This document shows positions 6,235-61,765 of a stretch of 64,000 bases of DNA, one piece after another (positions within the stretch are counted from its first letter, which is position 1; the number at the start of each line of letters is the position of its first letter). The position numbers and the translations under genes were made by a program. A model generated the notes under the pieces. The model had not been told where the DNA came from, searched no databases, and was given only the letters and a program-made list of their open reading frames with translations. The stretch comes from Candidatus Iainarchaeum sp. (GTDB lineage Archaea; B1Sed10-29; WALL01). The stretch lies in contig JAGMCR010000013.1 of assembly GCA_023129115.1 (NCBI GenBank), positions 26,726 through 90,725 of the forward strand. Direction: 5' to 3'.

Positions 6235-7896
6235 ATGGACTTCGCCGCCGTGGCAGAAACCCTTTCCACTCTCGAAGAGACGCCGTCCCGCCTCGAAATG
6301 ACCGAGATAGTGGCGTCCCTCCTCAAAAGCAGTGGCAGGGACCTCCGCACAGTAGTCCTCTTCATCCGGGGCCGCGTCTTCCCGCCGTGGGACCCCCGCG
6401 AAATTGGCGTCGCCCAAAAGTCCATGATAAAGTGCGTCTCCACAGCCACCGGCACCCCAGCAAAAAAAGTCGAGGAAACAATCGCGGCGCTCGGCGACAC
6501 CGGCCTCGCCGCCGAAGCACTCTTCACGAAAAAGCCGCAGACCACGCTCACCAAGAAAAAAATGTCCCTCGCCGAAATACATTCCTCGCTCGAAAAAATG
6601 GCTTCGTGGGAGGGCAAGGGCACCCAGGAAAAAAAGGGCAGGCACGTCATCGAGCTCCTCAACTCCGTTTCCCCGAACGAAGTAAAGTACCTTGTCCGCC
6701 TCGTGCTCGGCGAAATGCGCGTCGGCGTCGGCGAAGGAATCATGCGCGACGCCATTGCCAAGGCGTTCGGCGTCCCTGCCGCAGAAGCAGAGCGCGCGTT
6801 TTCACTAATCAACGACTACTCCGAGGTCGCCGAAATCGCGCGCACCAAGGGCGAGGCCGGGCTAAAGAAAATCGGCATTTTATTGTTCCGCCCGCTGCGG
6901 CCAATGCTCGCACAAACAGTGCACTCTGTCCAGGAGGCATTGGACAACGGTTGCAGGGCTTGGGAATATAAATACGATGGAATGAGAATACAGGCCCACA
7001 TCAAAAACGGCGAGGTCCGCGTCTTCACGCGCCGCCTCGACGACGTCACCCACCAGTTCCCGGACGTCGCCGAAGCCATCAAAAACACCGTAACCGCCAA
7101 GGAGGCAATCATCGAGGGCGAGACAGTCGCCGTCGACGAGTCCGAGCGCCCGCGCCCGTTCCAGTTCCTGTCGCGCCGCATCAAGCGCAAGTACAAAATC
7201 GACGAAATGGTGCGCGACATTCCCGTCATTACCTACTTGTTCGACTGCATGTACCTCGACGGCAAGAACCTCACCACCCAAAAAATGAAGGGGCGCCGCG
7301 CGGCGCTCAACAAAATTGTCACAGAAGGCAACCACGTGAAGTTCTCGAGGACGCTCATCACAAACTCTGCCGACAAGGCCGAGTCCTTCTACAAAGAATC
7401 ACTAAAACTCGGCCACGAGGGGGTGATGGCCAAGAACCTGGGCGCCGCGTACAAGCCGGGCTCGCGGGTCGGGTACATGTACAAATTAAAGCCCGTCACC
7501 GAGACCCTTGACTTGGTCATCGTGGCTGCGGAGTGGGGCGAGGGGCGGAGAGCCAACTGGCTCGGCTCTTACCTCCTGGCCTGCCGCGACCCGGACACGA
7601 ACGAGTTCCTCTCGATTGGCCGAATGGCGACTGGAGCCAAGGACGAGCAGCTCCAGTACCTCACTGACACGCTAAAGCCCACAATCGAGTTCCAGAAGGG
7701 CAAGTTCGTCAAGCTGAGGCCCACTCTCGTCGTCGAGGCCGGCTACCAGGAAATCCAGAAGTCGCCCACGTACGAGAGCGGCTACGCGCTGCGCTTCCCC
7801 CGCTTAATCACAATCCGCGAGGACCGCGCCCCCGAGGAATGCGACTCGCTGGACCGGGTTGCGTCTTTGCACGAGCGGTTCACTGCGAAGAAATAG
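6235..7896 (+). CDS. lig: ATP-dependent DNA ligase
   Basis: Adenylation motif EYKYDG, EGVMAK, KLKP and ALRFPR. Confidence 0.95.
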   Translation: MDFAAVAETLSTLEETPSRLEMTEIVASLLKSSGRDLRTVVLFIRGRVFPPWDPREIGVAQKSMIKCVSTATGTPAKKVEETIAALGDTGLAAEALFTKKPQTTLTKKKMSLAEIHSSLEKMASWEGKGTQEKKGRHVIELLNSVSPNEVKYLVRLVLGEMRVGVGEGIMRDAIAKAFGVPAAEAERAFSLINDYSEVAEIARTKGEAGLKKIGILLFRPLRPMLAQTVHSVQEALDNGCRAWEYKYDGMRIQAHIKNGEVRVFTRRLDDVTHQFPDVAEAIKNTVTAKEAIIEGETVAVDESERPRPFQFLSRRIKRKYKIDEMVRDIPVITYLFDCMYLDGKNLTTQKMKGRRAALNKIVTEGNHVKFSRTLITNSADKAESFYKESLKLGHEGVMAKNLGAAYKPGSRVGYMYKLKPVTETLDLVIVAAEWGEGRRANWLGSYLLACRDPDTNEFLSIGRMATGAKDEQLQYLTDTLKPTIEFQKGKFVKLRPTLVVEAGYQEIQKSPTYESGYALRFPRLITIREDRAPEECDSLDRVASLHERFTAKK

Positions 7897-8229
7897 CTAT
7901 GCCGTAATGGGGATGGGTATCGAGTCCTGGAGCGGTTCTTTGTAAATGGACAACAGCTTGAAGCCCACGACCAGGTTGTCCCCTTTTATGTTGTACTTTA
8001 GCTCTGCCGCTTTTATTCCTTCCAATGCTTTTTCTGTTTGTGCGGTTGTCAAGTCTACCCCAATCACTTCAGAAGCGTCAAATATTTCCAGCCCACTCAC
8101 TCTGTCTTTGTCGTCCATATCCACGACGAATATATCATCGGCCGAAACCAAGGAGTACTGTGATTTTCTCCCCTTCACGTTTAGCAGTAGTATGTCTTCG
8201 TCCTTGTTGTATACCCATTCCGCTTTCAT
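7897..8229 (-). CDS. DUF2283-like protein (putative antitoxin)
   Basis: YNKDEDILLL...VVDMDDKDRVSGLEIFDAS pattern; its start overlaps the upstream stop. Confidence 0.7.
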   Translation of the reverse strand: MKAEWVYNKDEDILLLNVKGRKSQYSLVSADDIFVVDMDDKDRVSGLEIFDASEVIGVDLTTAQTEKALEGIKAAELKYNIKGDNLVVGFKLLSIYKEPLQDSIPIPITA

Positions 8230-8585
8230 TTCTTCTTCGCCTCCGGTATCCGCCTTTTGTTGAACCGTGACTTCCGCTTCTTCTTCCGCAACCAATTATA
8301 CGAGATGACTATTAAATGGTTATCCCTGAATCTCACAACCACTCTTAAATCGTAAGTCCTGCTGCCATGGAACACAAGTAGCGTTCGTCCTTTTCTGGCT
8401 TTCTCCGCTTTTTTTAGCCCAGTGAGCCGGTTCTCAAAAAAGTCCAAAACTTTTTCCTTGGGTGGCCGCCCCTGCCTTTCCTCGATTTCGGTGACGTGTG
8501 GGGTGAACACTATAACGGATTGGCGTATCCTCTCCCGTGTTTCCTTGATGTCAAGGGGCTCTTTTTTCAGGGCATCAATTCTCAT
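8226..8585 (-). CDS. DUF4258/RelE-like small basic protein (putative toxin)
   Basis: FTPH motif, LRVVVRF..LIVIS beta strands, and pairing with the DUF2283-like gene. Confidence 0.5.
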   Translation of the reverse strand: MRIDALKKEPLDIKETRERIRQSVIVFTPHVTEIEERQGRPPKEKVLDFFENRLTGLKKAEKARKGRTLLVFHGSRTYDLRVVVRFRDNHLIVISYNWLRKKKRKSRFNKRRIPEAKKK

Positions 8586-8663
8586 CCCACTCTTTAGTAT
8601 GTCCGCTCAGTATAAAAACCGCTTCTGCTACGGCCTGCCGAGAAAAAAGAGTTGGGTGGGCCA

Positions 8664-8768
8664 CGCTTCCCCCGCTTAATCACAATCCGCGAGGACCGCG
8701 CGCCCGAGGAGTGCGACTCGCTGGACCGGGTTGCCGCTCTGCACGAGCGGTTCACCGCGAAGAAGTAG
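8664..8768 (+). repeat. Second copy of the last 105 nt of lig (7792-7896)
   Basis: Encodes RFPRLITIREDRAPEECDSLDRVAALHERFTAKK*; 7 differences, 6 synonymous. Confidence 0.95.
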
Positions 8769-9591
8769 GTGTTCTTGTCACTTCTTTCATCATGAAGGCG
8801 TCTATCGGGGCGTCGTGCGCGTAGTAGTCCCGCATTTCCCTCAGCTCTTTGTCCCTGATGTGGGGGTGCTTTGCCAGGTAATTGAAGAAGGTCAGGTACT
8901 CGTTTTCCGGGGTCACGTGCTTTATCCTGTTCCTGAACATTATGGTTAGGGCGTCCTGGAGAGCGTGTGCCGTTGGGTTTTTGGTCGCGAACTTAATCGC
9001 TGATTCTTTGTCCAGTATCCGTGTTTTCGTTTCTTTGGAGGCGGTTTTGACTTCTACTTTCAGTGATTTTTCTTCCATTTTCTGGTAATCCGAGTTAGGC
9101 ACTACGTTGATGTAGAAGTCAAGCTTCCTGGCCTTCAATAGGCGAAAAGTAACCCGCTTGGCTTTCAGCTTTTTCTCAATCTTTTTGATGTTGTCTTCGA
9201 CAGTCACGAGCTCCACGTTTTTGCCCATGCGGTACTCTGCATAGACAATGGTTGTTATAGGCCTGTTGACCAGGGCCAGGCCTTTTATTTCGTCCAATAG
9301 CTCAATCATGGCATTTGCTATTTCCGGCAGCTCCGCGCGTTCCAATGGCTTCCTGCCCGCTTTCTCTTTTTTGCGGATAACTGCTATTTGCCTATCCGTT
9401 AGTGCTTTCCTGGCTTCTTTGGTTATCTCGGTGTTTGGTGTCACAACAACGGTTTTCAATCTCTTAAACCGCTCAAGTTTTTTGGTTGCCCCGATGCCCA
9501 CGTAATTGTTAAATTTGACACTAGTGATATTGTTAGGGAGTCCTACCAGGTCGTCACTGTTTCGTATGTAGTCCATGCCAAGCCTCATCAA
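8752..9591 (-). CDS. Hypothetical protein (N-terminus weakly DUF1699-like)
   Basis: 279-aa ORF of lower GC with an AT-rich upstream region; family call is tentative. Confidence 0.65.
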   Translation of the reverse strand: MMRLGMDYIRNSDDLVGLPNNITSVKFNNYVGIGATKKLERFKRLKTVVVTPNTEITKEARKALTDRQIAVIRKKEKAGRKPLERAELPEIANAMIELLDEIKGLALVNRPITTIVYAEYRMGKNVELVTVEDNIKKIEKKLKAKRVTFRLLKARKLDFYINVVPNSDYQKMEEKSLKVEVKTASKETKTRILDKESAIKFATKNPTAHALQDALTIMFRNRIKHVTPENEYLTFFNYLAKHPHIRDKELREMRDYYAHDAPIDAFMMKEVTRTPTSSR

Positions 9592-9729
9592 TCATGATGT
9601 ATCACTATGCTCACTAGTATCACGATAGTCACTATTATGCAAATTTGCATATTTATGTATTTTTATAGAAATCCAATTTTATTTGGGTTAGGCACTATAT
9701 TTTTATAGTTGGGTGCCAGGAGTACACCC

Positions 9730-10665
9730 ATGGCCTACACACGCAAAAAGACGATCAAGGGCCACGAATACGCTTACATGGTCAAGAGCGTGAGGACCCC
9801 CAAAGGGCCGAGGCAGAAGGTAGTGGAGTACTTGGGCGCTGCCCAGAGCGGCGTGCTCGGGGCGGGTCGCCTGGGCGGGGTGAGGTTTGGCACTGGTTTT
9901 TCTGTGCCGGCTGATGAGGTCAGGGCGTTGGCCAGGGAGCAGGGTGCGTCCCTTGGGATGGCTGAAAAGGACTTCATGCTATCTGTTTTCTTGAAGTACT
10001 TGTACCTCGTTCCTGGCTCTGAAGTGCTGGTCTTCAAGGGCGGCACTGCCCTGTCAAAGGTTTACGTCAAGGGCTACCGATTGAGCGAGGACTTGGACTT
10101 CACTGCCATGATAAAGGACAAGAAAGCCGTCAGGGAACTCCTCCGCAGGGCCGCACGCGAGCTGGGGTTTGTCATCAAGCGCGAGAACATGACCTCGCGG
10201 AGTTACACGATACGCTTGGGTTTTGTGGGCATGCTGATGACGCCGAACAGCATCCACATTGACGTTGACTTCACGCGCACGCCAGTGCTGAAGCCCAAGC
10301 ACGTAAAAAAGAAGCTGCCGTACAAGGGGCTTGGGTATGCCACGATGGTTGTGTACGACCTGCGCGAGTTGTTTGCCGAAAAGGTTATGGCCTTATCGCA
10401 TCGTAAGAAGCCAAGGGACTTCTACGATATTTGGTACCTGTTCAAACACAAGCGCTTCAACCGCTCCGAGATAGCCAAAATCGTCAAGGCGAAGGGCCGA
10501 GAGTTTCCGCCCGGGCTTGATGTGCCAGGCATTTTCTCGGGGACTGACGCGGCCAGGCGGCAGTGGAAGAACAGGCTCGTGGAACTCATGCACGATGTGC
10601 CGGACTTTGACGTGGTCTTGGCAGAGCTGCGGCCCAAGCTAGAAGCCCTCGAGAAAGCCAAATAA
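9730..10665 (+). CDS. AbiEii/AbiGii-family nucleotidyltransferase toxin with an extra N-terminal module
   Basis: EKD, FKGGTAL, RLSEDLDF, EKVMAL and RDFYD motifs. Confidence 0.9.
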   Translation: MAYTRKKTIKGHEYAYMVKSVRTPKGPRQKVVEYLGAAQSGVLGAGRLGGVRFGTGFSVPADEVRALAREQGASLGMAEKDFMLSVFLKYLYLVPGSEVLVFKGGTALSKVYVKGYRLSEDLDFTAMIKDKKAVRELLRRAARELGFVIKRENMTSRSYTIRLGFVGMLMTPNSIHIDVDFTRTPVLKPKHVKKKLPYKGLGYATMVVYDLRELFAEKVMALSHRKKPRDFYDIWYLFKHKRFNRSEIAKIVKAKGREFPPGLDVPGIFSGTDAARRQWKNRLVELMHDVPDFDVVLAELRPKLEALEKAK

Positions 10666-11460
10666 CTGCTTGTCCTCGATGTTCTTGATTACCTTCCACT
10701 TCTTGTCTATGCCCCCCCTTCTTTCGGCAAAGGTGGAGAGGGGGACAGCTGTTGTGTCACGCTTTATGGCTTCGTGGAGGGGCTTCGTGGGCCTGACCCC
10801 CAGCTTGTCCATTACGTAGCCCAGGCGCTTTACCAGTGTCTTGTTGCGCATTTTGAGCGCGTATTCACAGAGCTTCTTGGCGTTGATTTCGCGCCTGGCG
10901 AAGTAGAGGGCCTTGGCGCACTCGGCGACGCCCAGGGAGTACTGTGGCTTGTCAAAGCAGTCCACAACAGTTTTTTCTTTCGACGCCATGTTGATGGCCG
11001 GGCCGCCCTTGAGCTCTACCTCTTCCCAACCAAAAAACTTGTGCTTGGACAGCGTGACGAACTTGTAGTCCACTCCATGGAACCGTGTTATGTCCTTTTT
11101 TTGTTTAGTGGTTGCTACGTAAACCGAAATAGGTATTTGCTCGGTGAATCCCCAGAAGTTCATGGCGCTCACATAGGACACGTAGTAAGGTGAGACCAAG
11201 TTAGGCACTATGAGCCACTGGTGCTCCCACCAACCTTCTTCACCCGCCTTTGTGGGTATGAGCACGTACTTGTCCCGTTCTAGCCTATCGAACCACCCCC
11301 CCTTTGTGAGGCGGTGCATCAAGTCCCTTGCCACGCGCTTCTTGCCACCCACTATTTTTCGCACGTCAGCCATGCTAACGACTGCCTTGCCCTCACGCTC
11401 TAGGCGCGACACTAGCCTAAAGCCCTTTTTGCCCAATGTCTTGCCTTTATTTTTTCTCAT
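10639..11460 (-). CDS. AbiEi-family type IV antitoxin / transcriptional regulator
   Basis: N-terminal wHTH, YYVSYVSAMNFWGFTEQIP, EKTVVDC and KRLGY. Confidence 0.88.
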   Translation of the reverse strand: MRKNKGKTLGKKGFRLVSRLEREGKAVVSMADVRKIVGGKKRVARDLMHRLTKGGWFDRLERDKYVLIPTKAGEEGWWEHQWLIVPNLVSPYYVSYVSAMNFWGFTEQIPISVYVATTKQKKDITRFHGVDYKFVTLSKHKFFGWEEVELKGGPAINMASKEKTVVDCFDKPQYSLGVAECAKALYFARREINAKKLCEYALKMRNKTLVKRLGYVMDKLGVRPTKPLHEAIKRDTTAVPLSTFAERRGGIDKKWKVIKNIEDKQLFGFLEGF

Positions 11461-11673
11461 TATAATCGCCTATTACGCGATTATCTATATAACAAAACAA
11501 GTATAAATACCTTGCTGTGGCACAGCCTAAAAGTAGCCCACACCCAAAAAAAGTGTTGACGCAGGGTTGGTGGGGGGCTATCCCATCAGTTAGGCACTAC
11601 ATTTTATTGGAATGCCCTCGGTATAAAAAGCGTCCACTCTACGGCTTGCCGAGAAAAAAATAATTAGCCTGGG

Positions 11674-12561
11674 CTACACTGCTTTGGTAGCCCAGTTGAT
11701 TATGTTCCTGAACAGGTCTTCCTGGTTCAGTTCAATCGGGTTGTACGCGAGGTAGACAATGCGGCCGCCCGTGGCCCCGGCGTCGTACGCGATGAATCCC
11801 GCGGTGCTCTGGCCCTTGCCGCTCCCGTCCGTCCACTCAATCCAAGCGACTTTGTTGCTTGCGTACGGCTCGTTCACCAGCGTCACGCCACTGAAGGACG
11901 CGTAGTTTGCAATATTGATTTTGAAGGGTGCAGTTATGCCGGCGCGTGTGAGAATTTGGTGCTTGTACTGCGTCGGCACGAACTGGACATCGCTCATGTC
12001 GCTCGGCAGCACAGTCACTGCGCCGATGGTGTTGCAGTTAGTGAAGGACGGGCACGCGGGCTCGAACTTGACTATCTTGGCCATGTCGTCCACGGCCCAC
12101 CCAAACGTGTACTCGCTTATGGAGCCGTCCGTGTTCATCTGGTTCAGGCCAGCGCCACGCACAATGATTAGCGCGCCGCCCGAGTTGACGTAGTCCGTGA
12201 TTTCGTTTCTTGCCTCGGTCGTCAGTGCCGTGCTGTCGCCGTAGAGAATCACGAGGTCGTAGTCATTGCTTGTTATCGCGCCCGCACGGATGTGCTGCTG
12301 CACGTTGTTGTCAATCACCGGCGTTATCTTGGTCACGCGGCTGCTTATGTCGGTGCCAAAAGTCTTGGCGGCGTCGTAGTCACTGGGGTTTGTGATGATG
12401 AGGGTCTGGACGCTCTCGCCCGCACAGAGGAAGCTCAGGAAGGAGGGGCATATCCCCATGAACTGGGTGGCGACCACCACCAGCACCAAGGCGACCAACA
12501 CTATTGGTATGGCCATCTCGGCGAACTGCTTTTGTCCTCCTCCGCGCGGATAGAACGCCAT
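11674..12561 (-). CDS. Membrane-anchored surface protein with a GATase-like domain (paralog 1)
   Basis: N-terminal TM; YDLVIL...ITDYVNSGGALIIV and GRIVYLAY...NIINW. Confidence 0.7.
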   Translation of the reverse strand: MAFYPRGGGQKQFAEMAIPIVLVALVLVVVATQFMGICPSFLSFLCAGESVQTLIITNPSDYDAAKTFGTDISSRVTKITPVIDNNVQQHIRAGAITSNDYDLVILYGDSTALTTEARNEITDYVNSGGALIIVRGAGLNQMNTDGSISEYTFGWAVDDMAKIVKFEPACPSFTNCNTIGAVTVLPSDMSDVQFVPTQYKHQILTRAGITAPFKINIANYASFSGVTLVNEPYASNKVAWIEWTDGSGKGQSTAGFIAYDAGATGGRIVYLAYNPIELNQEDLFRNIINWATKAV

Positions 12562-12573
12562 TTCTTTTTCACC

Positions 12574-13449
12574 TCACGCACTCTGGTACCCGGTGGCCCC
12601 GATGATGTAGGCAATCGTGTTGATGACGATGCCTTCCTCGACGTTCATGTCGATGTTCTCGGTCGTCGGGTTAAAGCTCATCCACACGACGCTTCCGCCT
12701 GCCACGTCGCCCATCTCGGCAACGCCGGGGTAGACGTCCCCGGTCTGGCCGGCCTTGACCTCTGCGCCGGACGGGAATCCGCCGATGTAGAGGATGTGCG
12801 AAGCCGTCACCGGGATGTTGGCCACGTTGATGCTGCCGTTGCCCGCGGTGAGGGGTGTGGCTGTGTCAACGTTCTTGGCGAGGCCGTTGTCGAACATGCC
12901 CTGCCTGATGTACATGGTTGGCGCGTAGACCTGCTCGTAGACCCCGGAGCAGTCGCCCAGCGGGCAGCTGACGGGCATGACGCTCGAGAGCTCTGCCCAC
13001 CGGCCGTTGGCCTGGGTGCCGCCCGTGCCAATCACGAGCATATTGCCTCCGCCGGCCACCCAGTTCTTGAGGATGACCTGCATTGACGGGGTCAGGTCGG
13101 TCGCGGTAAGCATAACGACGTCGTAGCCCTGGCTGTCGAGCCAGTCCGCAGAGCTGATTTTGTTGTACTGCGCGTCCGTCATTACTTCAACGTTCAGCGG
13201 GTTACCGAACACTTGCAGTGCCAGGTTCCCAGAGAGGTGCGCCCTCCAGTCGTTGGCCTCGCTGGCAGACTCTCCGATAATCAGCACGTTGACTGCAGAG
13301 CCGCCAAAGAGGTCGCCGAGAATTGGAACCCCGCGGACGAGGCTCGGGTTGAGAGCAATTACCCCTATAATAAGTAATAGAATAATCAAGACGGGAATAG
13401 CCGCCTCGAATTGTCGCTTGAATCCCTGTTCGTAATACTGTTGTGGCAT
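12574..13449 (-). CDS. Membrane-anchored surface protein with a GATase-like domain (paralog 2)
   Basis: N-terminal TM; YDVVML...LKNWVAGGGNMLVIG and GSVVWMSF. Confidence 0.7.
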   Translation of the reverse strand: MPQQYYEQGFKRQFEAAIPVLIILLLIIGVIALNPSLVRGVPILGDLFGGSAVNVLIIGESASEANDWRAHLSGNLALQVFGNPLNVEVMTDAQYNKISSADWLDSQGYDVVMLTATDLTPSMQVILKNWVAGGGNMLVIGTGGTQANGRWAELSSVMPVSCPLGDCSGVYEQVYAPTMYIRQGMFDNGLAKNVDTATPLTAGNGSINVANIPVTASHILYIGGFPSGAEVKAGQTGDVYPGVAEMGDVAGGSVVWMSFNPTTENIDMNVEEGIVINTIAYIIGATGYQSA

Positions 13450-13569
13450 ATGCCGCTCCTCCTGTTGAACACCATTATTCAGCCCCGCCTTTTAAAGCTT
13501 TCGCAGCCCCGGCACAGCTGCATAATTAGTTGACATAATCCCTTTTAAGCCTTTGCATAAATTGTCCCT

Positions 13570-13677
13570 AGTGGGGGACGAACAAAACGCAGTTGGTTAC
13601 TCGGCCCCTATGGCAAGCAAACTGGACTAGGGGGATGCCAATTGGCACCCCCCTTAGGCCGGCTCGAGTCCCCCACT
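13570..13677. repeat. MITE-like segment with 10-bp inverted ends and an internal family C palindrome
   Basis: AGTGGGGGAC at 13570 and GTCCCCCACT ending 13677; GGGGGATGCCAATTGGCACCCCC at about 13630. Confidence 0.55.
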
Positions 13678-13715
13678 CAGTAGAGCATGAACTCAATCAA
13701 GTTCTTCACGAACAC
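13677..13715 (-). repeat. Second copy of the last 39 nt of gene 13792-15786
   Basis: Both copies encode VFVKNLIEFMLY*; 5 differences, all synonymous. Confidence 0.92.
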
Positions 13716-13791
13716 AGCTTAAACTCAGCCCAAACCTGAGCTGGCGAGGTGGACTAAGGCGGCATCAGCAGATGCCGCGAATAGGCCTGCC
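13716..13791. repeat. Hairpin element, family B
   Basis: 13721-13763 matches 42007-42049 at 39 of 43 nt. Confidence 0.85.
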
Positions 13792-15786
13792 TCAATACAG
13801 CATAAATTCAATCAGGTTCTTCACGAACACTTCGTCTGTCTCTGGCGGGAACGCGTAATAGACGACCACGCCCCTGCCGAAGATGTGGCTCGCGAACTTC
13901 GGGTCCTTCACCGTAATCCCCGGCCACGTGTTCGCGTTCCGGTACGCCGGCGTCACGTGCAGCTGCACCACCTCGTGCGAGTTGACGTCGTTCGTCTCCA
14001 CCAGCACGAACGGGACAGGCAAGTCATTTTTCTTCAAGTCCTTCGCGCGCGTCACCCCTTGCACCAATGGGTGCTTGACGTCCGCTACCTGCATCACCGC
14101 CAGTGCCTCGCTCTCCGTCGCCGGGTCGAGCCGCACTTCCTGCGCAGCCTCAATCGCCGCTGCCGCCGAGTTCATTCCCTCGGCAAACCCATCGCCGCAC
14201 TTGAGCGACATGTCCCTGAGCCCGCGCGCAAGCGCCGCCCATTCGCTGCCCTGCGCAGTGCGGATGAAGTCCACCGCACCGTTCTCGTCCACAAGCGGCG
14301 ACGAATAAGCAATCAGCGTGTTCAATTCCTCGATGTGCCCGGTCTCCGCCGAAATGGCCTCGGCCACGTTCCCGACCTCATCCTCCTCGCACGAATTGTA
14401 CTCGTTAGCGTCACTCCGCAGCTTTGCCGCAGCGGCCTCGATGTCGGAGACCCTCGACCCCAGCAGCGAAATGTGGGAGTCATAGTTCGACTTCACGACC
14501 GCGTCTTCTTCACTCGCCCTCAGCGACTCAAGCGACGACTTCGCGCCCGCGACTTTCGTGGCAATGCCCTCAATCGCGGTTATCTCCATGCTTGTGGGCA
14601 CGCCATCAGGGATAACAACGGCCTCAATATCGTCGATGTACCCCTCCATCTTCGTTGCGGCAGAACTCACCGCGCTGGACGACTCGCCCCTCGCGTCCTT
14701 CTGCTGCGCCAGCGACTTCAGCGTCGTCACCACGCCGCCCAAATCAGTCTTGGCGCCGCTCTTCTCGTTCTCCAGGCCCGCGAGGCCCGCGTTAACGGCG
14801 GCAAGCGCCGCCGTGGGGCTGCACCCGCCCTCGCCGCCGAGCGCGTTGTGGCACACGACAAACCCTGCGTGCGCGCTCGCCAGGCCTTCCATGACAGTGT
14901 CAATCCCCGCGTAGTACCTGTCGAACTCTGCCACGGCATAATCGTCCGCCACGAAGCCGACGCCGAGCACGCTCTTGCCGAAGTCAATCCCGCCCTCGGT
15001 GCCCTCGGCAGTGATTTTTTCGTACTCGCCCCTTGCCCACGGGTTCGCCGTGGTCCTGAAGCCTTGCTCGTTGTCCCACCTGAAGTAAATGTCCTGGTAG
15101 CTCCCGCCCTCGCACGGGTAGCCCTTTGTGCCGCTCACGCCAAGCGTCCCGTCGAACGCGTCCGCGCAGATGCCCTCGATGTGCTCGAGCGCGCCGGCGA
15201 TTAGCGCTTCCTTTTTGATTGCGAACGCCTCGCTCGCCATGGCGTCGGACGGCGTGCTTACCTCGCTTTCCTTGACGCAGATTTCTTCTTCGTATTCCTG
15301 GATGCGCTTGCCGCCCTCGTCGCGCCACTCGGCGGTGTACTCCATGGTCCTGCACGTTTGGTCGCTCGACGAGCCGATTGTCCCGGCGTCTCCGACCCAG
15401 ACCAGTCTCCCCATGTCCTCGAACAAGTAGTTGTAGAACACCTTGAGCTTTTCCGTCGGTATTTCGCGCGCGTGCTCAACGATAATCAGTGAATAGTCCT
15501 GGATATTGCCCTTGGACACTTGGTCGACGCGCAGCTTCTGCACGGGCAGCTGGTACTGCGTCTCAATCATTCGTGCGAGCGTGTCGGGCGAGCCCATTCC
15601 CTCGTCGCCCCTGATAATCAGTATGGTCGGCTTCCCGAGCACGGAATAATAAATGTCGCAGTATCCCTGGCCGAGCGACGAGCAACCCACGAGCCCGGTC
15701 TTGGTCGCGACAATAAGCAGCGCGAAGACCAGCACTCCAATAGCAATCAAGTGGGGCAGGTTCTTCTGCAGGTCTTGGGACGCCAT
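13792..15786 (-). CDS. Membrane-anchored surface protein; GATase-like domain split by a large helical insertion (paralog 3)
   Basis: N-terminal TM; YSLIIVE...GRLVWVGDAG; C-terminal HPLVQG...GVVVYYAF; Ala-rich helical middle. Confidence 0.7.
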   Translation of the reverse strand: MASQDLQKNLPHLIAIGVLVFALLIVATKTGLVGCSSLGQGYCDIYYSVLGKPTILIIRGDEGMGSPDTLARMIETQYQLPVQKLRVDQVSKGNIQDYSLIIVEHAREIPTEKLKVFYNYLFEDMGRLVWVGDAGTIGSSSDQTCRTMEYTAEWRDEGGKRIQEYEEEICVKESEVSTPSDAMASEAFAIKKEALIAGALEHIEGICADAFDGTLGVSGTKGYPCEGGSYQDIYFRWDNEQGFRTTANPWARGEYEKITAEGTEGGIDFGKSVLGVGFVADDYAVAEFDRYYAGIDTVMEGLASAHAGFVVCHNALGGEGGCSPTAALAAVNAGLAGLENEKSGAKTDLGGVVTTLKSLAQQKDARGESSSAVSSAATKMEGYIDDIEAVVIPDGVPTSMEITAIEGIATKVAGAKSSLESLRASEEDAVVKSNYDSHISLLGSRVSDIEAAAAKLRSDANEYNSCEEDEVGNVAEAISAETGHIEELNTLIAYSSPLVDENGAVDFIRTAQGSEWAALARGLRDMSLKCGDGFAEGMNSAAAAIEAAQEVRLDPATESEALAVMQVADVKHPLVQGVTRAKDLKKNDLPVPFVLVETNDVNSHEVVQLHVTPAYRNANTWPGITVKDPKFASHIFGRGVVVYYAFPPETDEVFVKNLIEFMLY

Positions 15787-15811
15787 AGCAAAAGATTAGG
15801 GCGGCGAGTAT

Positions 15812-15919
15812 TTATATGTTTATCACGGTGCCCAGCCAGCCAAAAAGCCCAAGCCCAATAACCACTGCCATGCCGATAAACATTCCAGTAGCCATCAAAA
15901 GCTGCCTTCCACATCTCAT
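15812..15919 (-). CDS. Putative 35-aa single-TM peptide
   Basis: Manual translation MRCGRQLLMATGMFIGMAVVIGLGLFGWLGTVINI*; not in the ORF track. Confidence 0.4.
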   Translation of the reverse strand: MRCGRQLLMATGMFIGMAVVIGLGLFGWLGTVINI

Positions 15920-15957
15920 GCCAAAAGAAACAGCGCCCCGGCTTTTAATGCTTTTCC

Positions 15958-16725
15958 TCAAAGCGTGAACTTCGTGAGGATGTGCTTTTCCTTGGCCTGG
16001 ACCACTGCCTCTACCTCAATGTATTTCCCCAATCCGGACAATGCAATCCTCGGCCGCAGCAATTGGTCGAGCTGGAACACGCCCGCCGAGTTGTTCATCT
16101 TCACCAGAATCTTGACCGGCTTCTTCGTGCCCTTTTTTATACTAACATCATCAATGGCCTGCGCCGATACAGCATGAATGTCTTTCTTCCCCATGTCAAA
16201 CGGAATCCGGCTCCGCCCCTTGCTCATGTCCGTCGCGTCCGCGACGCGCACGACCCCAGCCTCGACGGTGAACGGCGCCAATTCCTTGCTGTAATGCGGC
16301 AGCGCGTGCAGTATCTCGGACTGCATCACGACCTGCTCCTCGACAGAATAGCCGCCCAGTAATTCCGGCAATAGCTGCGGCGCCAGAATGATGCTGAACA
16401 ATTCGTGGTTGTGCCGGTGCACGGTCATCCCGATGTCGTGCAGCGAGGCCGCCAAAACAACAACGACTTCTGCGTCATCAACCGTCATCTTATGGTTCTT
16501 CACAATACTCGGCTTCACGCCCCCTGCGACGAGCAGGCGCAGCATCTGCAGCGCGGCGTTCGCCACAATCTGTATGTGCACGGGCCCGTGGTCGTTGTAG
16601 CCAAGCCGGTCAATCGAGTTGACGTTCGAGCACTTCCACATCGCGGCGAGCCGCTTGCTCGCGCGGACTTTCTTGACCACCGACCCCAGTTTTTTGTTCC
16701 CCTTCACGGGAATGTTGAACCTCAT
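15958..16725 (-). CDS. HD-domain metal-dependent phosphohydrolase
   Basis: NDHGPVH, LHDIG, VADATD and GRSRIP; ATGA overlap with the upstream gene. Confidence 0.88.
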   Translation of the reverse strand: MRFNIPVKGNKKLGSVVKKVRASKRLAAMWKCSNVNSIDRLGYNDHGPVHIQIVANAALQMLRLLVAGGVKPSIVKNHKMTVDDAEVVVVLAASLHDIGMTVHRHNHELFSIILAPQLLPELLGGYSVEEQVVMQSEILHALPHYSKELAPFTVEAGVVRVADATDMSKGRSRIPFDMGKKDIHAVSAQAIDDVSIKKGTKKPVKILVKMNNSAGVFQLDQLLRPRIALSGLGKYIEVEAVVQAKEKHILTKFTL

Positions 16726-18005: not shown

Positions 18006-18006
18006 T

Positions 18007-18111: not shown

Positions 18112-18133
18112 ATCGTCACCTTGTCATGCTTCT

Positions 18134-52842: not shown

Positions 52843-52909
52843 GGTGAAACCCGGCTAAAACTCAGCTAAACCGAACAACAACCAAACATCTTGTGGAGAT
52901 GTCCGGTAT

Positions 52910-52969
52910 CCGGCGGGATGCACAGACTCACTCGGCGACGCGACAGGGGCCGCAACCGGCTCTTGCTAG
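52910..52969 (+). repeat. Diverged second copy of the last 20 codons of the DsbA-like gene
   Basis: PAGCTDSLGDATGAATGSC* versus PTGCEESLGAATGSASGSC* (51128-51187); both are followed by a GGCAGC..GCTGCC hairpin. Confidence 0.85.
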
Positions 52970-53006
52970 AAACAAATCCCGGCAGCCTTTCCGGCTGCCG
53001 TTCTGC

Positions 53007-54344
53007 TTATTTTTTCTTCTGTTTTGCTTTTGCCATCGATTCTCTGAAGAACGTGTGAAGTTCCGGCTCTTTTTTGCCCGTCATGACGTGGATGCATTCC
53101 CCCAGCACGGGGTTTTTCCCTTTTACTCTCTCAGCAATCTCGTTAGCCGCTCCACTGACGTCCCCCCTTTTTGCAGCCGTTTCCAAAAGCCCGTTTACTT
53201 CGTCCCGGCTTATTTTGGCTTGGGCATAAGCCTTTGCCAAAAGGAAGCCAAGATTGTGTTCAAACGAGAAGTGGGGTGCGAGGTACCTACTGCTTTCAAG
53301 CCAGTCTTTATGCTGCTCATGGAAAGAAAACGATTCATGGAATGAGTCCATTAGCAATTTCTGCCATTCCAGTTCTTCAGGCCGGGTGCATGCCTTTTCT
53401 ATTGCCCCATCAATGCCCTCTAAGAATTCGCGCTGTTTTGGTTTTGCGTGCTCTTTTTCGTGAATTAAGGTCCTCTCAATTGAACCGGGGGCATAGTGGA
53501 ATCCGTGCTTCTCCCGTTCCTTTCTTTGTTTTTGTTTTATCTCTTTGCATTTCTTTTCGATAGTGTGGATATCCCGAAAATGGTCTGTTACTACCTTAAG
53601 ATAGTCGTAGGCCCTCCAACGCTTCGAAAGCGCGTATGCCTTTGGCAGTTCGGGCGATTCAAATACTCTTCCCTTTGAAGGATTGTCCGGTTCCTGCTCG
53701 GGGGCGATAAATATAAGTTGTTTGTTTTCCCGATATTTTTTGTGTGCTTCTTGCATCATTTTATTCTTTAGTTTTTCCAATGTCCGCCTATTCTTTGCAG
53801 GGATGTTAACGTCATCCACAACATTAAAAACGAAGTCCATAAGCACCCCAATACTTTCTTTATTGGTTGCGGAACTAGAGTGGAGTGGCATCAACATAAC
53901 GTCGTTTGGCAGGCTTACTCGCTGCCCAATTACTTTTTTCAAATCCTCCCTATTCTTGAGGAACCACACGCGATTCATTTTCTCGAGCATGCCTTCGTAT
54001 GGCTTCCAAGAGTCTGGATGCTTTTGTTTCACGATTTGTCTCAGGTCCTCCTTCTGGATTGCCTCGTAAATCCTGCCGGTCTTTTCCTTCAGTGGCCTCC
54101 TCAGGCAACTATACGCCGGGATTTTGTCCAGTGCCTGGTTTATGAAGTCCACCATCCCCAGCAAGTCCGCTTTTTTGGTGGAAACAAGAGCATCATACCG
54201 GGATTTTCCCACCCGCTTTTTTACGACGAAACGCTTGTACACATCCATCTCGCGCTGAAGTCTCGGGACTACCCTATTCAGCGAGTTCAAGAGGGCAAAC
54301 TCGTTCTCGACACGCCGAGCCCTCGTTTCCTTCTTGGGAGGCAT
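53007..54344 (-). CDS. Orphan protein with an HExxH motif
   Basis: LIHEKEH with downstream HESF; likely start MPPKK. Confidence 0.65.
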   Translation of the reverse strand: MPPKKETRARRVENEFALLNSLNRVVPRLQREMDVYKRFVVKKRVGKSRYDALVSTKKADLLGMVDFINQALDKIPAYSCLRRPLKEKTGRIYEAIQKEDLRQIVKQKHPDSWKPYEGMLEKMNRVWFLKNREDLKKVIGQRVSLPNDVMLMPLHSSSATNKESIGVLMDFVFNVVDDVNIPAKNRRTLEKLKNKMMQEAHKKYRENKQLIFIAPEQEPDNPSKGRVFESPELPKAYALSKRWRAYDYLKVVTDHFRDIHTIEKKCKEIKQKQRKEREKHGFHYAPGSIERTLIHEKEHAKPKQREFLEGIDGAIEKACTRPEELEWQKLLMDSFHESFSFHEQHKDWLESSRYLAPHFSFEHNLGFLLAKAYAQAKISRDEVNGLLETAAKRGDVSGAANEIAERVKGKNPVLGECIHVMTGKKEPELHTFFRESMAKAKQKKK

Positions 54345-54399
54345 CGAAAAAATTAGGGGCAAGAGCCAATAAAAAGGTTAGTCGCAATCCCACTCGATC

Positions 54400-54487
54400 C
54401 TTACAAACAACTAACACGTGGTCCTTCTCAGCCCTTTTTCTGTTACTCGCTAGCGCTCGCTCGGTGGAAAAGCGCTGGCGGAAAAAC
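54400..54487 (-). repeat. Second copy of the fibrillarin 3' end (54400-54429) plus a family A element (54430-54487)
   Basis: EKDHVLVVCK is encoded twice with 5 synonymous differences. Confidence 0.88.
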
Positions 54488-55132
54488 TTAGTTCTTACAA
54501 ACTACTAGCACATGGTCTTTTTCGAACGGCTCGAGCGGAATCACTTCAAGCACTTCAATTCCCGCTTCTTTTATCACGTTGATTTCTTTTTTGAACACTT
54601 GCTTCGGCTCCATCGACACGTCCACGCTCCGCGCCTTGATGCACAGCAAGCCGTAGCCCTTCACGAGCGCCATGTTCTTCACAAAAATAGCTGCCTGCCT
54701 CGGCTGCGCAACGTCCTGGTAAACCACTGACACTCCGTCCAAGTAATCCGCGTACTCCTCCGGGTGGTTCGCGTCCGCGAGCACGGGAACCATGTTCTCG
54801 CGCCGCTCGCAAAGCGGCAACAACTTCTCGAAAGCCCTCTGCGAAATCTCGACGCAAACGACAACCCCTTTCTCGACAACGTCGCTCACGTGCGACGGCG
54901 TCGTGCCCTGTGCCGCGCCGAGGTACAGCACCCCCGTGCCAGCGTCGAAAGGAAAGTTCTTCAATCCATTCATAATCGCCGCGGCCAGCTTGGATCGGTT
55001 CGGGTCCCACTGCCGCAGCTCGCCTGAGTTGTACTTCACGAGTTTTTCGCCGTACACGCGCTGCCCCGGGTCAAGGGACAAGGTATACAATTGCTTGCCG
55101 CCGCGGAACACGTTGTGGAAGAGCTTCTTCAT
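54488..55132 (-). CDS. flpA: Fibrillarin-like rRNA/tRNA 2'-O-methyltransferase
   Basis: VYGE, WDPNRSKLAAA, VLYLGAAQGTTPSHVSD and YQDVAQP. Confidence 0.95.
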   Translation of the reverse strand: MKKLFHNVFRGGKQLYTLSLDPGQRVYGEKLVKYNSGELRQWDPNRSKLAAAIMNGLKNFPFDAGTGVLYLGAAQGTTPSHVSDVVEKGVVVCVEISQRAFEKLLPLCERRENMVPVLADANHPEEYADYLDGVSVVYQDVAQPRQAAIFVKNMALVKGYGLLCIKARSVDVSMEPKQVFKKEINVIKEAGIEVLEVIPLEPFEKDHVLVVCKN

Positions 55133-59130: not shown

Positions 59131-59937
59131 ATGATTAAAGTCGGCACAGCAGGAACGCCGAACTCGGCGGAAAAAAGGACGTCGTTCCACGGCGTGACGC
59201 GCATTCGCGAGCTTGGCCTGGACGCGATGGAGGTCGAGTTCACTTACGGCGTGCGGATGGGCAACGCCACCGCGAGGCAGCTGAAGAAGCACGCCGAAGA
59301 AAACAACGTCTCCCTCTCCGTGCACGGGCCGTACTACATAAACCTCAACGCGCGCGAGGCAAAGAAGCGCAAGGACTCCGAGAGGCGCATCCTCGAGTCC
59401 TGCGAAAAAGGCGCGTTGATGGGCGCGCGGAACATTTGCTTCCACCCAGGGTTTTACCTAAAGCAGGACCCCGACCTCGTCTACGCGAACGTGTACGACG
59501 AGTTAATGGCGCTCACCGAGATAATCGAGAAAAAAGAGTTGGGCGTCCGGCTCTGCCCCGAGACCACGGGCAAGCCCACGCAGTTTGGCTCGTGGGAAGA
59601 ATTAATGCGCCTCTGCAGCGACGTGCCGGGGCTCGGCATGACCTTTGACTTTTCCCACGTCTATGCCCGCGAGGCGGGCAAGGGGGACTTCGACGAGGCC
59701 CTGAAGGCAATGAAGAAAGAGCTGGGCGCGAGTTTTCTCCACGACCTGCACATGCACTTCTCGGGAATCATCTATACAGAAAAGGGCGAGCGCAGCCACT
59801 GCGACATGGACGACTGCGGCGAGCCCGGGTTCAAGCCAATCACCGACTCAATGAAGAAGTGGCACCTCGGCGGGACAGCGATTTGCGAGTCCCCCAACCT
59901 CGAGACGGACGCGCTGAAGCTCAAGAAGATGCTTTGA
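59131..59937 (+). CDS. nfo: Endonuclease IV (AP endonuclease family 2)
   Basis: HGPYYINLN, FHPG, ETTGK, DFSH, HMHFSG and ICESP. Confidence 0.92.
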   Translation: MIKVGTAGTPNSAEKRTSFHGVTRIRELGLDAMEVEFTYGVRMGNATARQLKKHAEENNVSLSVHGPYYINLNAREAKKRKDSERRILESCEKGALMGARNICFHPGFYLKQDPDLVYANVYDELMALTEIIEKKELGVRLCPETTGKPTQFGSWEELMRLCSDVPGLGMTFDFSHVYAREAGKGDFDEALKAMKKELGASFLHDLHMHFSGIIYTEKGERSHCDMDDCGEPGFKPITDSMKKWHLGGTAICESPNLETDALKLKKML

Positions 59938-59938
59938 T

Positions 59939-60937
59939 TTACTTGCGCAGAGAGTGTTTTTGTTTCTTTAGTAGGTCTCTGGCTATTTTTCCGCCTTGTT
60001 GCGAGTGCATGCATTCCGAGTAACGTATTCTTCCTTGTTCTGGTTTATCATACTCATACAAGTGACCAAGTCTGCCCGTTAAGTAGTTAATCACCTTCTG
60101 CTCTTTCACTGTCTTGCTGGTCTTCCCGTCATAGTAGGCATCATTAAACACATAGTTTAAATGTATGTTGTAGTACTGTCCCGCCCTTGTACGTTTCCCA
60201 ACCTTGTTTGGGGTAAACTCCGCGAGTTTTTCATTGTGCACCTCAAGTCGTGCATCTCCCTCAACCGTGCTTTGGGCAAACTCCGTGACTTTTTCATTGT
60301 GCTCGTCGAGTGCCTTGGTCAGGGGGGCTATGCCAAACCCCGCTTTTTCCATGCTTTGGCGCGCAATCTCTTCCGCGAGCTGTTCCCTCGTCTCGACACC
60401 ACCCCGGATTTGCCGAGGGAATTGCCTTTCCACCTCGTGGCCGAGCTCGTGCGCCAGGAAATCCAAAAACAGTAGTTCAGTCTGCTCTGCTTTCCCGGTG
60501 CCTTCGATATCAAAGTCTTCAGCGAGCCTCTGGGCTTGGGTGAGGTCGACTCGGACGGCTGTGCCCTCCTTTGGCTCTTCGCCCCCGTGGACAATCTGCC
60601 CGTTGCTGTAGACAGCCAAGCGGCTGCCCTCCGCCCTCGCCTTCCCGGGACTGGTAGTAGTGGAGACCCCCCCGCGGAAAGACAAGACAAGAATCGCGGG
60701 CTCCTTCAGCTCGGCGCCGTGCTCCCTGCCAATCTCGAAGACCGAAGAAATGACTTTCTTGAGTTTTTCGTCCAGCTTCCCGGTGGAGACCTTTTTTTCA
60801 TAAAACTCTTTGGCCTGCCTGTCCCACTCGCCCATCTTATGCTGGATGGCATCCTCCATTTCCGGAGTTACTTCTCCCGCTTCCACTAGCAGCCTGTCGA
60901 GCTCAAGAGGCGTCAGCTTTTTCAGGTCTATGGCCAT
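59939..60937 (-). CDS. Orphan zincin-like protein
   Basis: LAHELGH followed by EQLAE. Confidence 0.65.
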   Translation of the reverse strand: MAIDLKKLTPLELDRLLVEAGEVTPEMEDAIQHKMGEWDRQAKEFYEKKVSTGKLDEKLKKVISSVFEIGREHGAELKEPAILVLSFRGGVSTTTSPGKARAEGSRLAVYSNGQIVHGGEEPKEGTAVRVDLTQAQRLAEDFDIEGTGKAEQTELLFLDFLAHELGHEVERQFPRQIRGGVETREQLAEEIARQSMEKAGFGIAPLTKALDEHNEKVTEFAQSTVEGDARLEVHNEKLAEFTPNKVGKRTRAGQYYNIHLNYVFNDAYYDGKTSKTVKEQKVINYLTGRLGHLYEYDKPEQGRIRYSECMHSQQGGKIARDLLKKQKHSLRK

Positions 60938-60980
60938 TAGCTATTCTTTAGGCACTCACGGCTTAAAAGCGTTAGCTGCC

Positions 60981-60999
60981 CAAGAAGATGCTGGAGTAA
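60981..60999 (+). repeat. Short copy of the nfo 3' end (KKMLE*)
   Basis: CAAGAAGATGCTGGAGTAA, located between two cargo units. Confidence 0.55.
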
Positions 61000-61042
61000 G
61001 CCCGAAAAACTTAAATATAGGGTATACCATAGTATCCCCCAG

Positions 61043-61243
61043 GTGATACAAATGGAAACTGTGCCGGCAAAGCTTACTCAACGGCTTGTTATGGAGCTTG
61101 ACGAGCTAGTGAAGGAGGGTTGGTACGCGAACCGGTCTGAGGCTGTCCGGGATGCTGTGCGGGAGCTGGTTGAAAAGATGCGGGTGGAGCTGCTGGAAGA
61201 GGCAATAAAGAAGGATATTGAATGGGGACTGTATGGCAAGTAA
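61043..61243 (+). CDS. Ribbon-helix-helix (CopG-like) antitoxin
   Basis: LDELVKEGWYANRSEAVRDAVR. Confidence 0.85.
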   Translation: MIQMETVPAKLTQRLVMELDELVKEGWYANRSEAVRDAVRELVEKMRVELLEEAIKKDIEWGLYGK

Positions 61244-61742
61244 GCTCACCGCAGTTTCCGACACTGGCCCTGTTATCCACCTTTGGGAAGTGGGCTGCCT
61301 AAAAGCGTTTAAGGTGTGTGGCCGGCTTTTTGTGCCGACGGCAGTGGAGTCGGAGCTGGGGAAAAAAGGTGGGGCCAAAAGGGTTCCCGGGCTAAAAGTC
61401 GTGGGGCTGACGAGGAAGGAGAAGGACTTGTCCGCGTATGTCTCACTGAAGTATGGCTTGGGGATGGGCGAGTCAGAAGCAATCACGCTCTGCAAGTCAA
61501 GAAAAATAAAGATGTTTTTCACCGATGACCTTGGGGCACGGCTGGTGGCCGAAAGGGAAAATATTGAGGCCCACGGGAGTGTTGGGATATTGTTGAGGGC
61601 GTTCAGGGAAGGCATACTGGGCGAGGAGGAAGCAATAAAAGCCCTCGACGGCCTTGCCGGCAAGTCCACGCTCTTCATAACTTACCCGCTTGTCGAGGAA
61701 GCCATACGCGCGGTCAAAAAATATTCGAGACAGACGCTTTGA
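61233..61742 (+). CDS. PIN-domain toxin (DUF3368-like)
   Basis: VSDTGP, AVESEL, GESEAI, TDDLGAR and GSVGIL. Confidence 0.85.
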   Translation: MASKLTAVSDTGPVIHLWEVGCLKAFKVCGRLFVPTAVESELGKKGGAKRVPGLKVVGLTRKEKDLSAYVSLKYGLGMGESEAITLCKSRKIKMFFTDDLGARLVAERENIEAHGSVGILLRAFREGILGEEEAIKALDGLAGKSTLFITYPLVEEAIRAVKKYSRQTL

Positions 61743-61765
61743 AGCTCAAGAAGATGCTGAAATGA
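61725..61765 (+). repeat. Copy of the nfo 3' end (ETDALKLKKMLK*)
   Basis: 4 synonymous differences from 59900-59937; its stop overlaps the ATG of the next gene. Confidence 0.9.

Follow-up and report, generated by a model that had tools for sequence, protein, structure and literature searches.

Allelic gene ends in tandem in a DPANN-type archaeal genome and a possible route of additive DNA gain

Arrays of orphan 3' ends and immunity genes occur at Rhs, contact-dependent inhibition (CDI) and type VI secretion system (T6SS) loci, and an origin by homology-facilitated illegitimate recombination (HFIR) has been proposed for them (Kirchberger et al. 2017, PMC5361080). Bacterial restriction-modification genes are known to insert with a long target duplication, and a cycle of invasion, repeat-mediated amplification and release has been proposed; no archaeal case survived the screen of that study (Furuta, Abe and Kobayashi 2010, PMC2853133). 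For the tycheposons of Prochlorococcus, tandem accretion at tRNA genes is reported (bioRxiv 10.1101/2020.12.28.424599). Here we discuss a 64-kb window of DNA from a Candidatus Iainarchaeum genome (G000:C5:26726-90725; positions are those of the window unless another contig is named), in which gene ends occur in two or more copies with inserted DNA between them. The reading we put forward, with roughly even confidence, is that allelic segments of 'gene end + flank', derived from related lineages, are stacked additively in a process that would proceed via gene-end homology and involve no classical mobile-element enzyme.

Gene content differs strongly among DPANN archaea, even though their genomes are tiny and packed and few mobile-element enzymes are known from them. 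When an element integrates into the 3' end of a gene, the textbook outcome is a gene end that is borne by the element and synonymously recoded, as for phage 21 and e14 at icd. Repetitive extragenic palindromic (REP) and bacterial interspersed mosaic element (BIME) repeats, BOX repeats and repeats resembling miniature inverted-repeat transposable elements (MITE) are short, modular, multi-copy, hairpin-forming and intergenic. De Vries and Wackernagel 2002 and Prudhomme et al. 2002 are cited in Kirchberger et al. 2017, and Nobusato et al. 2000 is cited in Furuta, Abe and Kobayashi 2010 on long target duplication.

Repeated gene ends and the divergence of their copies

The window belongs to G000, a metagenome bin of 1.25 Mb in 19 contigs (C-numbers below) that is 88.6% complete. 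The source organism is a DPANN-type archaeon, and its relatives are small archaeal genomes of 0.3-1.3 Mb. For comparison we used the congeneric genome G002, which has about 80% nucleotide identity, is collinear with the window and is 84% complete. A first-pass annotation made from the letters of the window had described seven loci with a duplicated gene end, and all seven are present as described.

Repeated gene ends are also found genome-wide. Rough gene calling on G000 gave 1184 genes, and the 1019 of at least 100 aa with enough flank were used to search the last 36 nt of each gene, without gaps, against the 6 kb downstream. Tails recurred in 12/1019 genes at a threshold of at least 26/36 and in nine at 28/36 or better. 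Interior 36-mers of the same genes gave one hit at either threshold, gene heads gave two and one, and the reverse complement of the tail none. About ten of the 12 are convincing once aligned, with C1 46816 and C18 7362 looking low-complexity, and six of the convincing pairs lie on the contig of the window. Unlike the 3' tails, gene 5' ends showed no enrichment in G000 (3/1018 against 1/1018 in the control). In eight of the ten best pairs the homology ends 0-2 nt past the stop codon, and in three pairs the stop codon itself differs between the copies (for example TGA and TAG).

For the differences between the copies, ten pairs were examined with stop codons excluded from the counts. The seven differing pairs of at least 85% identity hold 29 synonymous and one non-synonymous nucleotide difference. 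Under a null model of duplication in place, in which the working copy takes only synonymous changes and the relic drifts freely, about 37% would be expected to be synonymous (P = 5e-12). All nine differing pairs together give 41 synonymous and 10 non-synonymous differences (P = 2e-10), and the bias extends to loci with nothing but a hairpin between the copies, at 5:0 for gene 13792 and 6:0 for C9 44538. Because the differences are overwhelmingly synonymous, both copies evolved as working gene ends, and the tail copies are alleles that were both under protein-level selection. For the diverged pairs this agrees with the initial view that the copies were once functional alleles and not fresh target duplications. 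Its count of 20 synonymous changes out of 21 in lig, gene 13792, fibrillarin and nfo stands in direction and not in number, as our recount gives 20 synonymous and three non-synonymous.

At the first of the seven loci, the ATP-dependent DNA ligase gene lig (6202-7896, + strand; Pfam DNA_ligase_A_N/M/C) ends in tail copy A, its last 105 nt (7792-7896). Insert 1 (7897-8663, - strand; 767 nt, GC content 0.47) carries a DUF2283 gene and one small open reading frame (ORF) and is followed by the relic tail copy B (8664-8768, + strand), which is identical to copy A at 98/105 positions, the differences being six synonymous and one non-synonymous. Behind it lies insert 2 (8769-11659, no strand assigned) with an orphan 279-aa gene and an AbiEii/AbiEi pair. 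Both inserts are absent from G002, and they end in related 43-nt motifs, X1 at 8606-8648 and X2 at 11617-11659.

Two loci on the - strand hold members of H and F, two families of small hairpin elements discussed below, behind a protein gene. At gene 13792-15786 (locus 13676-13830) a relic (13676-13715), a 75-nt H element (13716-13790) and the working tail (13791-13830) follow each other, with 35/40 positions identical between the tails. The fibrillarin locus (54392-54523) has a relic tail (54392-54429), a 56-nt F element (54430-54485) and the working tail (54486-54523), with 29/38 identical. At a glmU-like gene on the same strand (locus 17981-18111) it is the 5' end that is repeated, at 17981-18006 and as a relic at 18086-18111, identical at 26/26 positions and separated by a 79-nt F element (18007-18085).

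Cargo is also found at three further loci. The nfo (endonuclease IV) locus (59899-62935, + strand) has its tail at 59899-59937, followed by a 3-kb G000-specific insertion with two further tail copies, one at 61724-61762 (33/39 identical) and a short third one at about 60981-61001; the cargo comprises an orphan 332-aa gene, an RHH/DUF3368 pair and a methyltransferase. In the DsbA-like locus (51146-53014, + strand) the tail with its terminator hairpin (about 51146-51236) and the relic tail with its hairpin (52925-53014) share 34/45 positions in their coding part and bracket about 1.7 kb with an AAA_14/DUF4143 ATPase gene (51373-52842). Upstream, Rfam places a second tRNA of the window at 49889-50001 (+ strand; 113 nt, 58.7 bits), probably intron-containing and missed by ARAGORN; the annotated start of the DsbA-like ORF (49928) falls within it, and this ORF probably begins further downstream. 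The tRNA-Arg(tct) locus (40283-42306, - strand) consists of the tRNA (42231-42306), a composite hairpin unit with H1 (42091-42147), a relic Arg tail (42071-42092) and H2 (42008-42066). The 3' end of the tRNA recurs without a difference (42232-42248 and 42071-42087, 17/17), and further tRNA-like tails lie at 41983-42008 and 40283-40302. The tails beside H2 and at 40283 match best to a tRNA-Leu end (14/16-17) and not to tRNA-Arg(tct). A low-GC (0.42) cargo island at about 40200-42000, with a HicB-like antitoxin, a HEPN gene and a nucleotidyltransferase (MNT), is thus flanked by tRNA-Leu-like 3' ends while sitting at a tRNA-Arg gene.

Gene and cargo identities are from Pfam, for which 40 window ORFs were scanned. 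Across the window the cargo comprises DUF2283, AbiEii/AbiEi, HEPN with nucleotidyltransferase, HicB, RHH, methyltransferases, GNAT and the AAA_14/DUF4143 ATPase. Apart from these loci, a 1284-aa ORF (34347-38201, + strand) has at least eight repeats of about 255-265 nt that end in a conserved ...SGEGW motif; the neighbouring genes 29161-31128 and 31194-34283 are paralogous to one another, and a doubled 28-nt motif (ATTCTGTCTAGACGTT...) lies in front of each.

On other contigs, some sites hold more than two copies. At C9 44538 three tails and two nearly identical H copies alternate with a period of 113; the 48-nt repeat is present once in G002. Of the three tails, the middle one combines stretches of its two neighbours and the last one matches G002 in its right part, which looks like the result of unequal crossing-over between repeats. 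C9 62222 also has three tail copies. At C18 49480 (G000:C18:48739-49515) a 57-nt repeat of tail plus TATA-like box, identical at 57/57 positions, lies on both sides of a 141-aa gene to which the next downstream gene is a diverged homologue. One small gene is present here in two tandem versions, each with its promoter copy. The density of such events is unusual, with about ten ends of protein genes and a dozen of tRNA genes affected in 1.25 Mb.

Could the repeats have been made by the assembly? Alleles of co-existing strains might have been chained into one contig of a metagenome-assembled genome (MAG), and G000 is indeed a metagenome bin, with a congener, G002, that lacks long duplications. 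We checked window positions 2900-22899 in k=31 Logan contigs from three runs of one study (cold-seep metagenomes). The 13792 repeat is wholly spanned by one contig (8672-18054) of the probable source run, and a 673-nt contig of a second run covers 13264-13936 without a difference. At lig the contigs stop in a 38-nt stretch common to both copies, so that the tandem order there rests on the original assembly. Support at the level of reads is thus partial and comes through these k=31 contigs. The three lig pieces have equal depth (18.3, 20.3 and 17.6), which speaks against chained strains. The lig contigs fit the tandem order, and a chromosome that has only copy B, accompanied by an 872-nt circle, would explain them equally well. 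A 296-nt contig from the low-coverage (3x) run X3 joins 8549-8663 to 7792-7972, and this 8663-to-7792 junction may stem from the 872-nt circle, from tandem copies of the unit or from an effect of low coverage on the assembly graph. A pure artefact is nevertheless very improbable: a false join would need more than the 5 nt that the joints have at most in common with any alternative path, and the repeats follow a biological rule, ending at stop codons and differing synonymously.

The inserts can also be set against relatives. Four stretches of the window (7898-11651, 38551-42229, 51237-54491 and 59938-62935) are lacking in G002, where their flanks abut, and by this comparison they would be gains in G000 or losses in G002. 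In G002 the lig stop lies about 15 nt from a convergent neighbour gene, nfo and the next gene abut (42674/42673), the DsbA-like and fibrillarin genes are about 10 nt apart, and the tRNA-Arg flank is 74 nt long compared to 3.7 kb in the window. The C9 44538 site is empty there as well. Empty sites, which the first-pass annotation had suggested looking for in related genomes, are therefore found both in collinear G002 and in one metagenome lig relative. Of the four such relatives, that one has the empty arrangement, another an unrelated 1.7-kb insert, a third 0.48 kb, and in the fourth the contig ends early. None of them has a second lig tail copy (best matches 15-21 of 36). As relatives are empty or differently filled, the space behind lig is a hot spot whose cargo varies by lineage. 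A close strain for lig was not found among these metagenome relatives, the best having 87% amino-acid identity over part of the protein.

Two families of hairpin elements

The H family includes the 75-nt insert at gene 13792 and the two units beside tRNA-Arg. An H element consists of a GC-rich hairpin, an almost invariant CTAACGTGCC and a second, 7-bp hairpin with a 3-nt loop. Compensatory changes mark hairpin 2 among 18 copies (AU/GC 12:6, GC/CG 14:4, GC/UA 11:6). With nhmmer, 56 copies are detected in G000. A covariance model finds H in all three genomes of the genus (49, 35 and 6 copies) and in none of 58 other archaea searched, that is in 3/61 genomes overall; the exact core pattern occurs in 17 stretches, in genomes of three records, among 185,579 species. 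The F family, to which the fibrillarin and glmU inserts belong, has 28 copies in G000 and occurs, too, where the 5' end of a protein gene or of a tRNA is duplicated. Two Rfam scans, one of the whole window at the gathering threshold and a permissive one of 41900-42320, returned only tRNAs and no family for the hairpin elements, of which three H and two F copies lie in the window. Three near-identical GC-rich palindromes of the GGGGGACGCCAGTTGGCGTCCCCCC type, all intergenic (18180-18206, 38572-38598 and 13629-13654), resemble hairpin 1 of some H copies.

H is tied to gene ends. In 40 of the 49 copies with a gene at most 400 nt upstream, it has the same orientation as that gene, and 22/56 copies lie behind tRNA genes. 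Its left end is 0-9 nt behind the gene end, and only 0-1 nt separate the last paired base of hairpin 2 from the relic. In 27/56 copies, what directly follows H is a repeat of sequence up to 200 nt before it, compared to 2/56 each in shuffled and reverse-complement controls. In G002, flank duplications accompany 10/33 of its 35 H copies. The duplications of H range from 3-5 nt to 50 nt. One G002 copy lies between convergent genes that abut in G000 and has a duplication of only 3-5 nt, so that duplication length is very variable.

These properties bear on another possible origin, a transposition-like insertion with long, variable target duplication. Hairpins or cassettes would insert behind a gene end, repair of the staggered break would duplicate the target, and the copies would diverge later. 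Such insertion, with repeats of more than 30 bp and no mobility genes, is known for bacterial restriction-modification genes (PMC2853133). H and F fit it in being discrete, with defined ends and, for H, the flank duplications above controls. The site of the G002 copy is empty in G000, as expected of an insertion, and several pairs are identical, namely C18 49480, glmU and several tRNA ends of 14-39 nt. The diverged pairs, with their 29:1 ratio and those at gene 13792 and C9 44538 among them, are incompatible with an origin in place and neutral decay. A transposase candidate was not found, and the four TnpB-like genes of G000 are not near H. As a general account we consider this quite improbable; it may account for how H and F first arrived and for the identical pairs, and not for the diverged ones.

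The conserved hairpins at the junctions had initially been taken as a hint of a dedicated end-processing step. They turn out to be two discrete, genus-specific repeat families that also occur behind tRNA genes, and thus a second phenomenon mixed in that is not yet evidence of such a step. A more active role for H, and perhaps F, is a speculation we regard as rather unlikely. They could be the cis-acting ends of a recombinase-independent DNA gain driven by host enzymes. Donor DNA would be cut or end at the foot of hairpin 2, and hairpin-ended fragments of gene tail, optional cargo and H would be stitched in via gene-end homology, leaving the other tail copy beside the hairpin.

Homology at gene ends or integration

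How might allelic gene ends come to lie in tandem? On our reading, the window would be a series of places where genes are readily gained, in a genome that has hardly any spare DNA. In the stacking by gene-end homology that we put forward, donor DNA from a related lineage would carry the same conserved gene, followed by its own cargo or a small hairpin element, and the conserved gene end would let it recombine with the resident chromosome. Short homology or microhomology would make the other joint, at a distance of a few dozen bases upstream from the stop codon of the resident gene, or else a circle could enter by a single crossover within the gene tail. The outcome would be two allelic versions of 'gene tail + flank' in tandem with both neighbouring genes intact. 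Later unequal crossing-over between the repeats could reshuffle and multiply the units, and selection would remove events that damage the neighbours, which in this genome are 2-15 nt apart. Such selection would leave mostly short end duplications among the survivors. That the donors are related lineages, that a circular or unequal-crossover step took part and that selection acts as the filter we infer; the data themselves show the duplications, their genome-wide enrichment, the empty sites of relatives, the allelic and synonymously diverged copies and a window devoid of recombinases.

The lig locus offers the closest view of a joint. After X1, insert 1 contains bases that resemble the 3' end of the neighbour gene, where relatives read ..GGGCC..ACGCTTTGG. 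The joint GGGCCA|CGCTTCC would share 5 nt, CGCTT, with lig at position -105. The incoming piece may therefore have begun in lig, continued with cargo of its own and ended just inside the neighbour gene, with microhomology providing the joint to the resident lig, if the relatives are a guide to the donor. The working tail is contiguous with its gene and allelic to the relic, and long repeats of more than 30 bp that are single in G002 and come without a mobility gene are found at lig (105 nt), nfo (39 nt) and C9 44538 (48 nt).

The relic and the resident tail do not always coincide. With G002 as outgroup, the differing sites side with the working copy in 36 cases, with the relic in 24 and with neither in 14 (11 pairs with an ortholog, out of 13 examined). 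This is a weak test and uninformative on the native copy, as the copies mostly resemble each other more than they do G002. In the DsbA-like pair, a mosaic, similarity to G002 lies with the working copy for the coding part and with the relic for the hairpin after the stop codon, which fits a reciprocal crossover near the stop codon. With these observations and the tRNA-Leu-like relics at tRNA-Arg, it is clear that tails can travel with the incoming DNA and that crossovers vary. The earlier proposal, likened to HFIR, of a homologous anchor in a core gene and a non-homologous far joint, with the old tail left behind, is thus partly supported: the lig joint would fit an anchor plus microhomology, the tail copies are allelic, and the inserts are gains relative to G002. 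The rule on the old tail is not general, an integrase array exists elsewhere in the genome, and three of nine insertions in the window lack a duplication.

Profile searches found no recombinase family on the window's contig or among the 40 ORFs scanned, which bears out the earlier statement that the window encodes none. The genome as a whole is not free of integrases: whole-genome searches with PF00589 and PF16795 recovered a sole tyrosine integrase (C12:78360-79529; 389 aa, zinc ribbon at the C-terminus), and 75 nt in front of it the tRNA-Thr 3' end is present as a perfect 24-nt copy. The integrase lies in a 24-kb array downstream of tRNA-Thr(cgt) (G000:C12:74872-99214) with nine copies of the tRNA 3' end. 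Several units have inverted-repeat arms and others end in H, which directly precedes two or three of the tRNA ends. This array represents classical tandem integration. An SSV-type integrase, serine recombinase, IS110 transposase, reverse transcriptase (RVT_1) and Cas1 were not found in G000, nor was a PF01797 match for Y1 transposase, TnpA or RAYT. What the earlier suggestion to look beyond the window for HUH, TnpA, RAYT or tyrosine recombinases yielded is thus the integrase on C12 alone, next to one sub-threshold DDE fragment. Four TnpB-like (Cas12f1-like_TNB) genes (C3:10561, C3:79611, C3:102282 and C13:134192) are present in an assembly without a Y1 transposase. PF00589 has no match in G002, G003 and G004, three of five family members searched (completeness 84-98%), which are thus apparently without XerA. 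Three other candidates were set aside: retro-insertion and casposons in view of the missing RVT_1 and Cas1 matches, and H plus relic as a guide-RNA scaffold of TnpB, as none of the four TnpB-like genes is near H and C3 has no H. A search of the literature on integrated elements of DPANN archaea returned nothing specific.

Could the loci then be the work of a classical integrase? Decayed or non-autonomous elements would carry a replacement gene 3' end at their attachment site, the integrase would act in trans or have been lost, and repeated integration would build the tandem arrays. Direct repeats that include the 3' end of the target gene are present, as in attL and attR, and synonymously recoded ends are what such elements bring. 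At tRNA genes the case is strongest. The integrase sits in the nine-copy tRNA-Thr array with its inverted-repeat arms, H abuts tRNA relics in that array and follows tRNA genes in many of its copies, the tRNA relics show imperfect T-loop-like bases left of the identical block, and the tRNA-Leu-like relics at tRNA-Arg must have travelled with the insert. For the tRNA loci this is a serious rival. Against it stand a single integrase for at least ten protein-gene targets and a dozen tRNA targets, repeats that vary in length between 3-5 nt and 105 nt, the lack of a shared core, on inspection by eye, where the repeats at protein genes begin on their left side, and H elements that abut the ends of many different tRNAs and protein genes instead of one target. 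Inserts of 56-79 nt are too small for decayed elements with both ends so precisely kept, the integrase gene is neither in nor beside the window inserts, and G002 has its 35 H copies, 10/33 of them flank-duplicated, without a tyrosine recombinase match. A parent element was sought with the H core in 2.9 million viral contigs, with 0 matches. Taken over all loci, we consider integration unlikely, if still the foremost alternative.

Several observations weigh against the stacking of allelic segments without a mobile-element enzyme. Three of the nine G000-specific inserts of the window (3045-4038, 21897-22837 and 23308-24719) have no flank repeat beyond 6-9 nt. The tail scan of G002 gave 0/837 at a threshold of 26/36, and whichever threshold was used, long tail repeats were not in excess there; even in the genus the process is thus not general, or the relics are short-lived. 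Microhomology is inferred at the lig joint only, and from relatives rather than the true donor. In the k=31 contigs of one study, neither a donor genome nor a proven circle, an empty-site joint or an excision joint was seen. The tRNA genes show the classical att pattern of an integrase, whose gene is present in the tRNA-Thr array, and as G000 is only 88.6% complete, a recombinase could be missing from the assembly. Finally, the base-exact right border of H at many independent loci is not predicted by random illegitimate joints and points to an element-specific step.

Comparison with known systems

If our proposal is right, the window shows an entry route into DPANN genomes: DNA from related lineages would come in at gene ends and leave an allelic second gene end as a scar, which lets events be counted and ordered. 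If the process is independent of integrases, it extends ideas from bacterial toxin loci and restriction-modification genes to archaeal housekeeping genes and offers a practical marker of recent gene gain in MAGs.

Part of this is common ground with described systems, of which the integrative elements are one. Like the replacement gene ends of phage 21 and e14, the repeats consist of 3' ends that are recoded but functional. Compared to the tycheposons, cargo arrays separated by partial tRNA ends in a streamlined genome are a shared feature, and the tRNA-Thr array of G000 is of this kind. Unlike in either, the window has no integrase and the genome a single one, the targets include many protein genes, repeat length varies, and the inserts go down to 56 nt. 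In contrast to integron cassette arrays, the contig lacks an integrase, the inserts lie at many gene ends and not in one array, and the cargo inserts have no common terminal hairpin.

The hairpin families invite a separate comparison. As in REP/BIME, BOX and MITE, H and F are short, modular, multi-copy intergenic hairpins with compensatory changes in their stems. Unlike MITE or REP, they have no terminal inverted repeats with a fixed short duplication and no RAYT or TnpA, and they lie exactly behind gene ends, accompanied by a duplicated gene end whose length varies.

Bacteria provide two close parallels, and the route first thought possibly undescribed is in concept already known there, from the Rhs/T6SS orphan arrays and from insertion with long target duplication. 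In the account of Rhs, CDI and T6SS arrays (PMC5361080), a conserved upstream anchor, an old 3' end pushed downstream, repeated events and arrays without an integrase are found as they are here. The present anchors are archaeal housekeeping genes (ligase, fibrillarin and endonuclease IV) and the displaced pieces measure 20-105 nt, in contrast to those arrays. The cargo differs too, being toxin-antitoxin pairs, methyltransferases, an ATPase, orphans or a 60-nt hairpin, and the relic is not always the resident allele. With long target duplication (PMC2853133), our loci share inserts without mobility genes, repeats of more than 30 bp that are single-copy in a relative, and several overlaps with gene 3' ends. 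The repeats of those cases are near-identical, whereas many of the present pairs are allelic and synonymously diverged, with small hairpin elements as frequent cargo. What is new here is the DPANN host, the housekeeping anchors, the density of events, the allelic divergence of the copies and two hairpin repeat families with exact borders.

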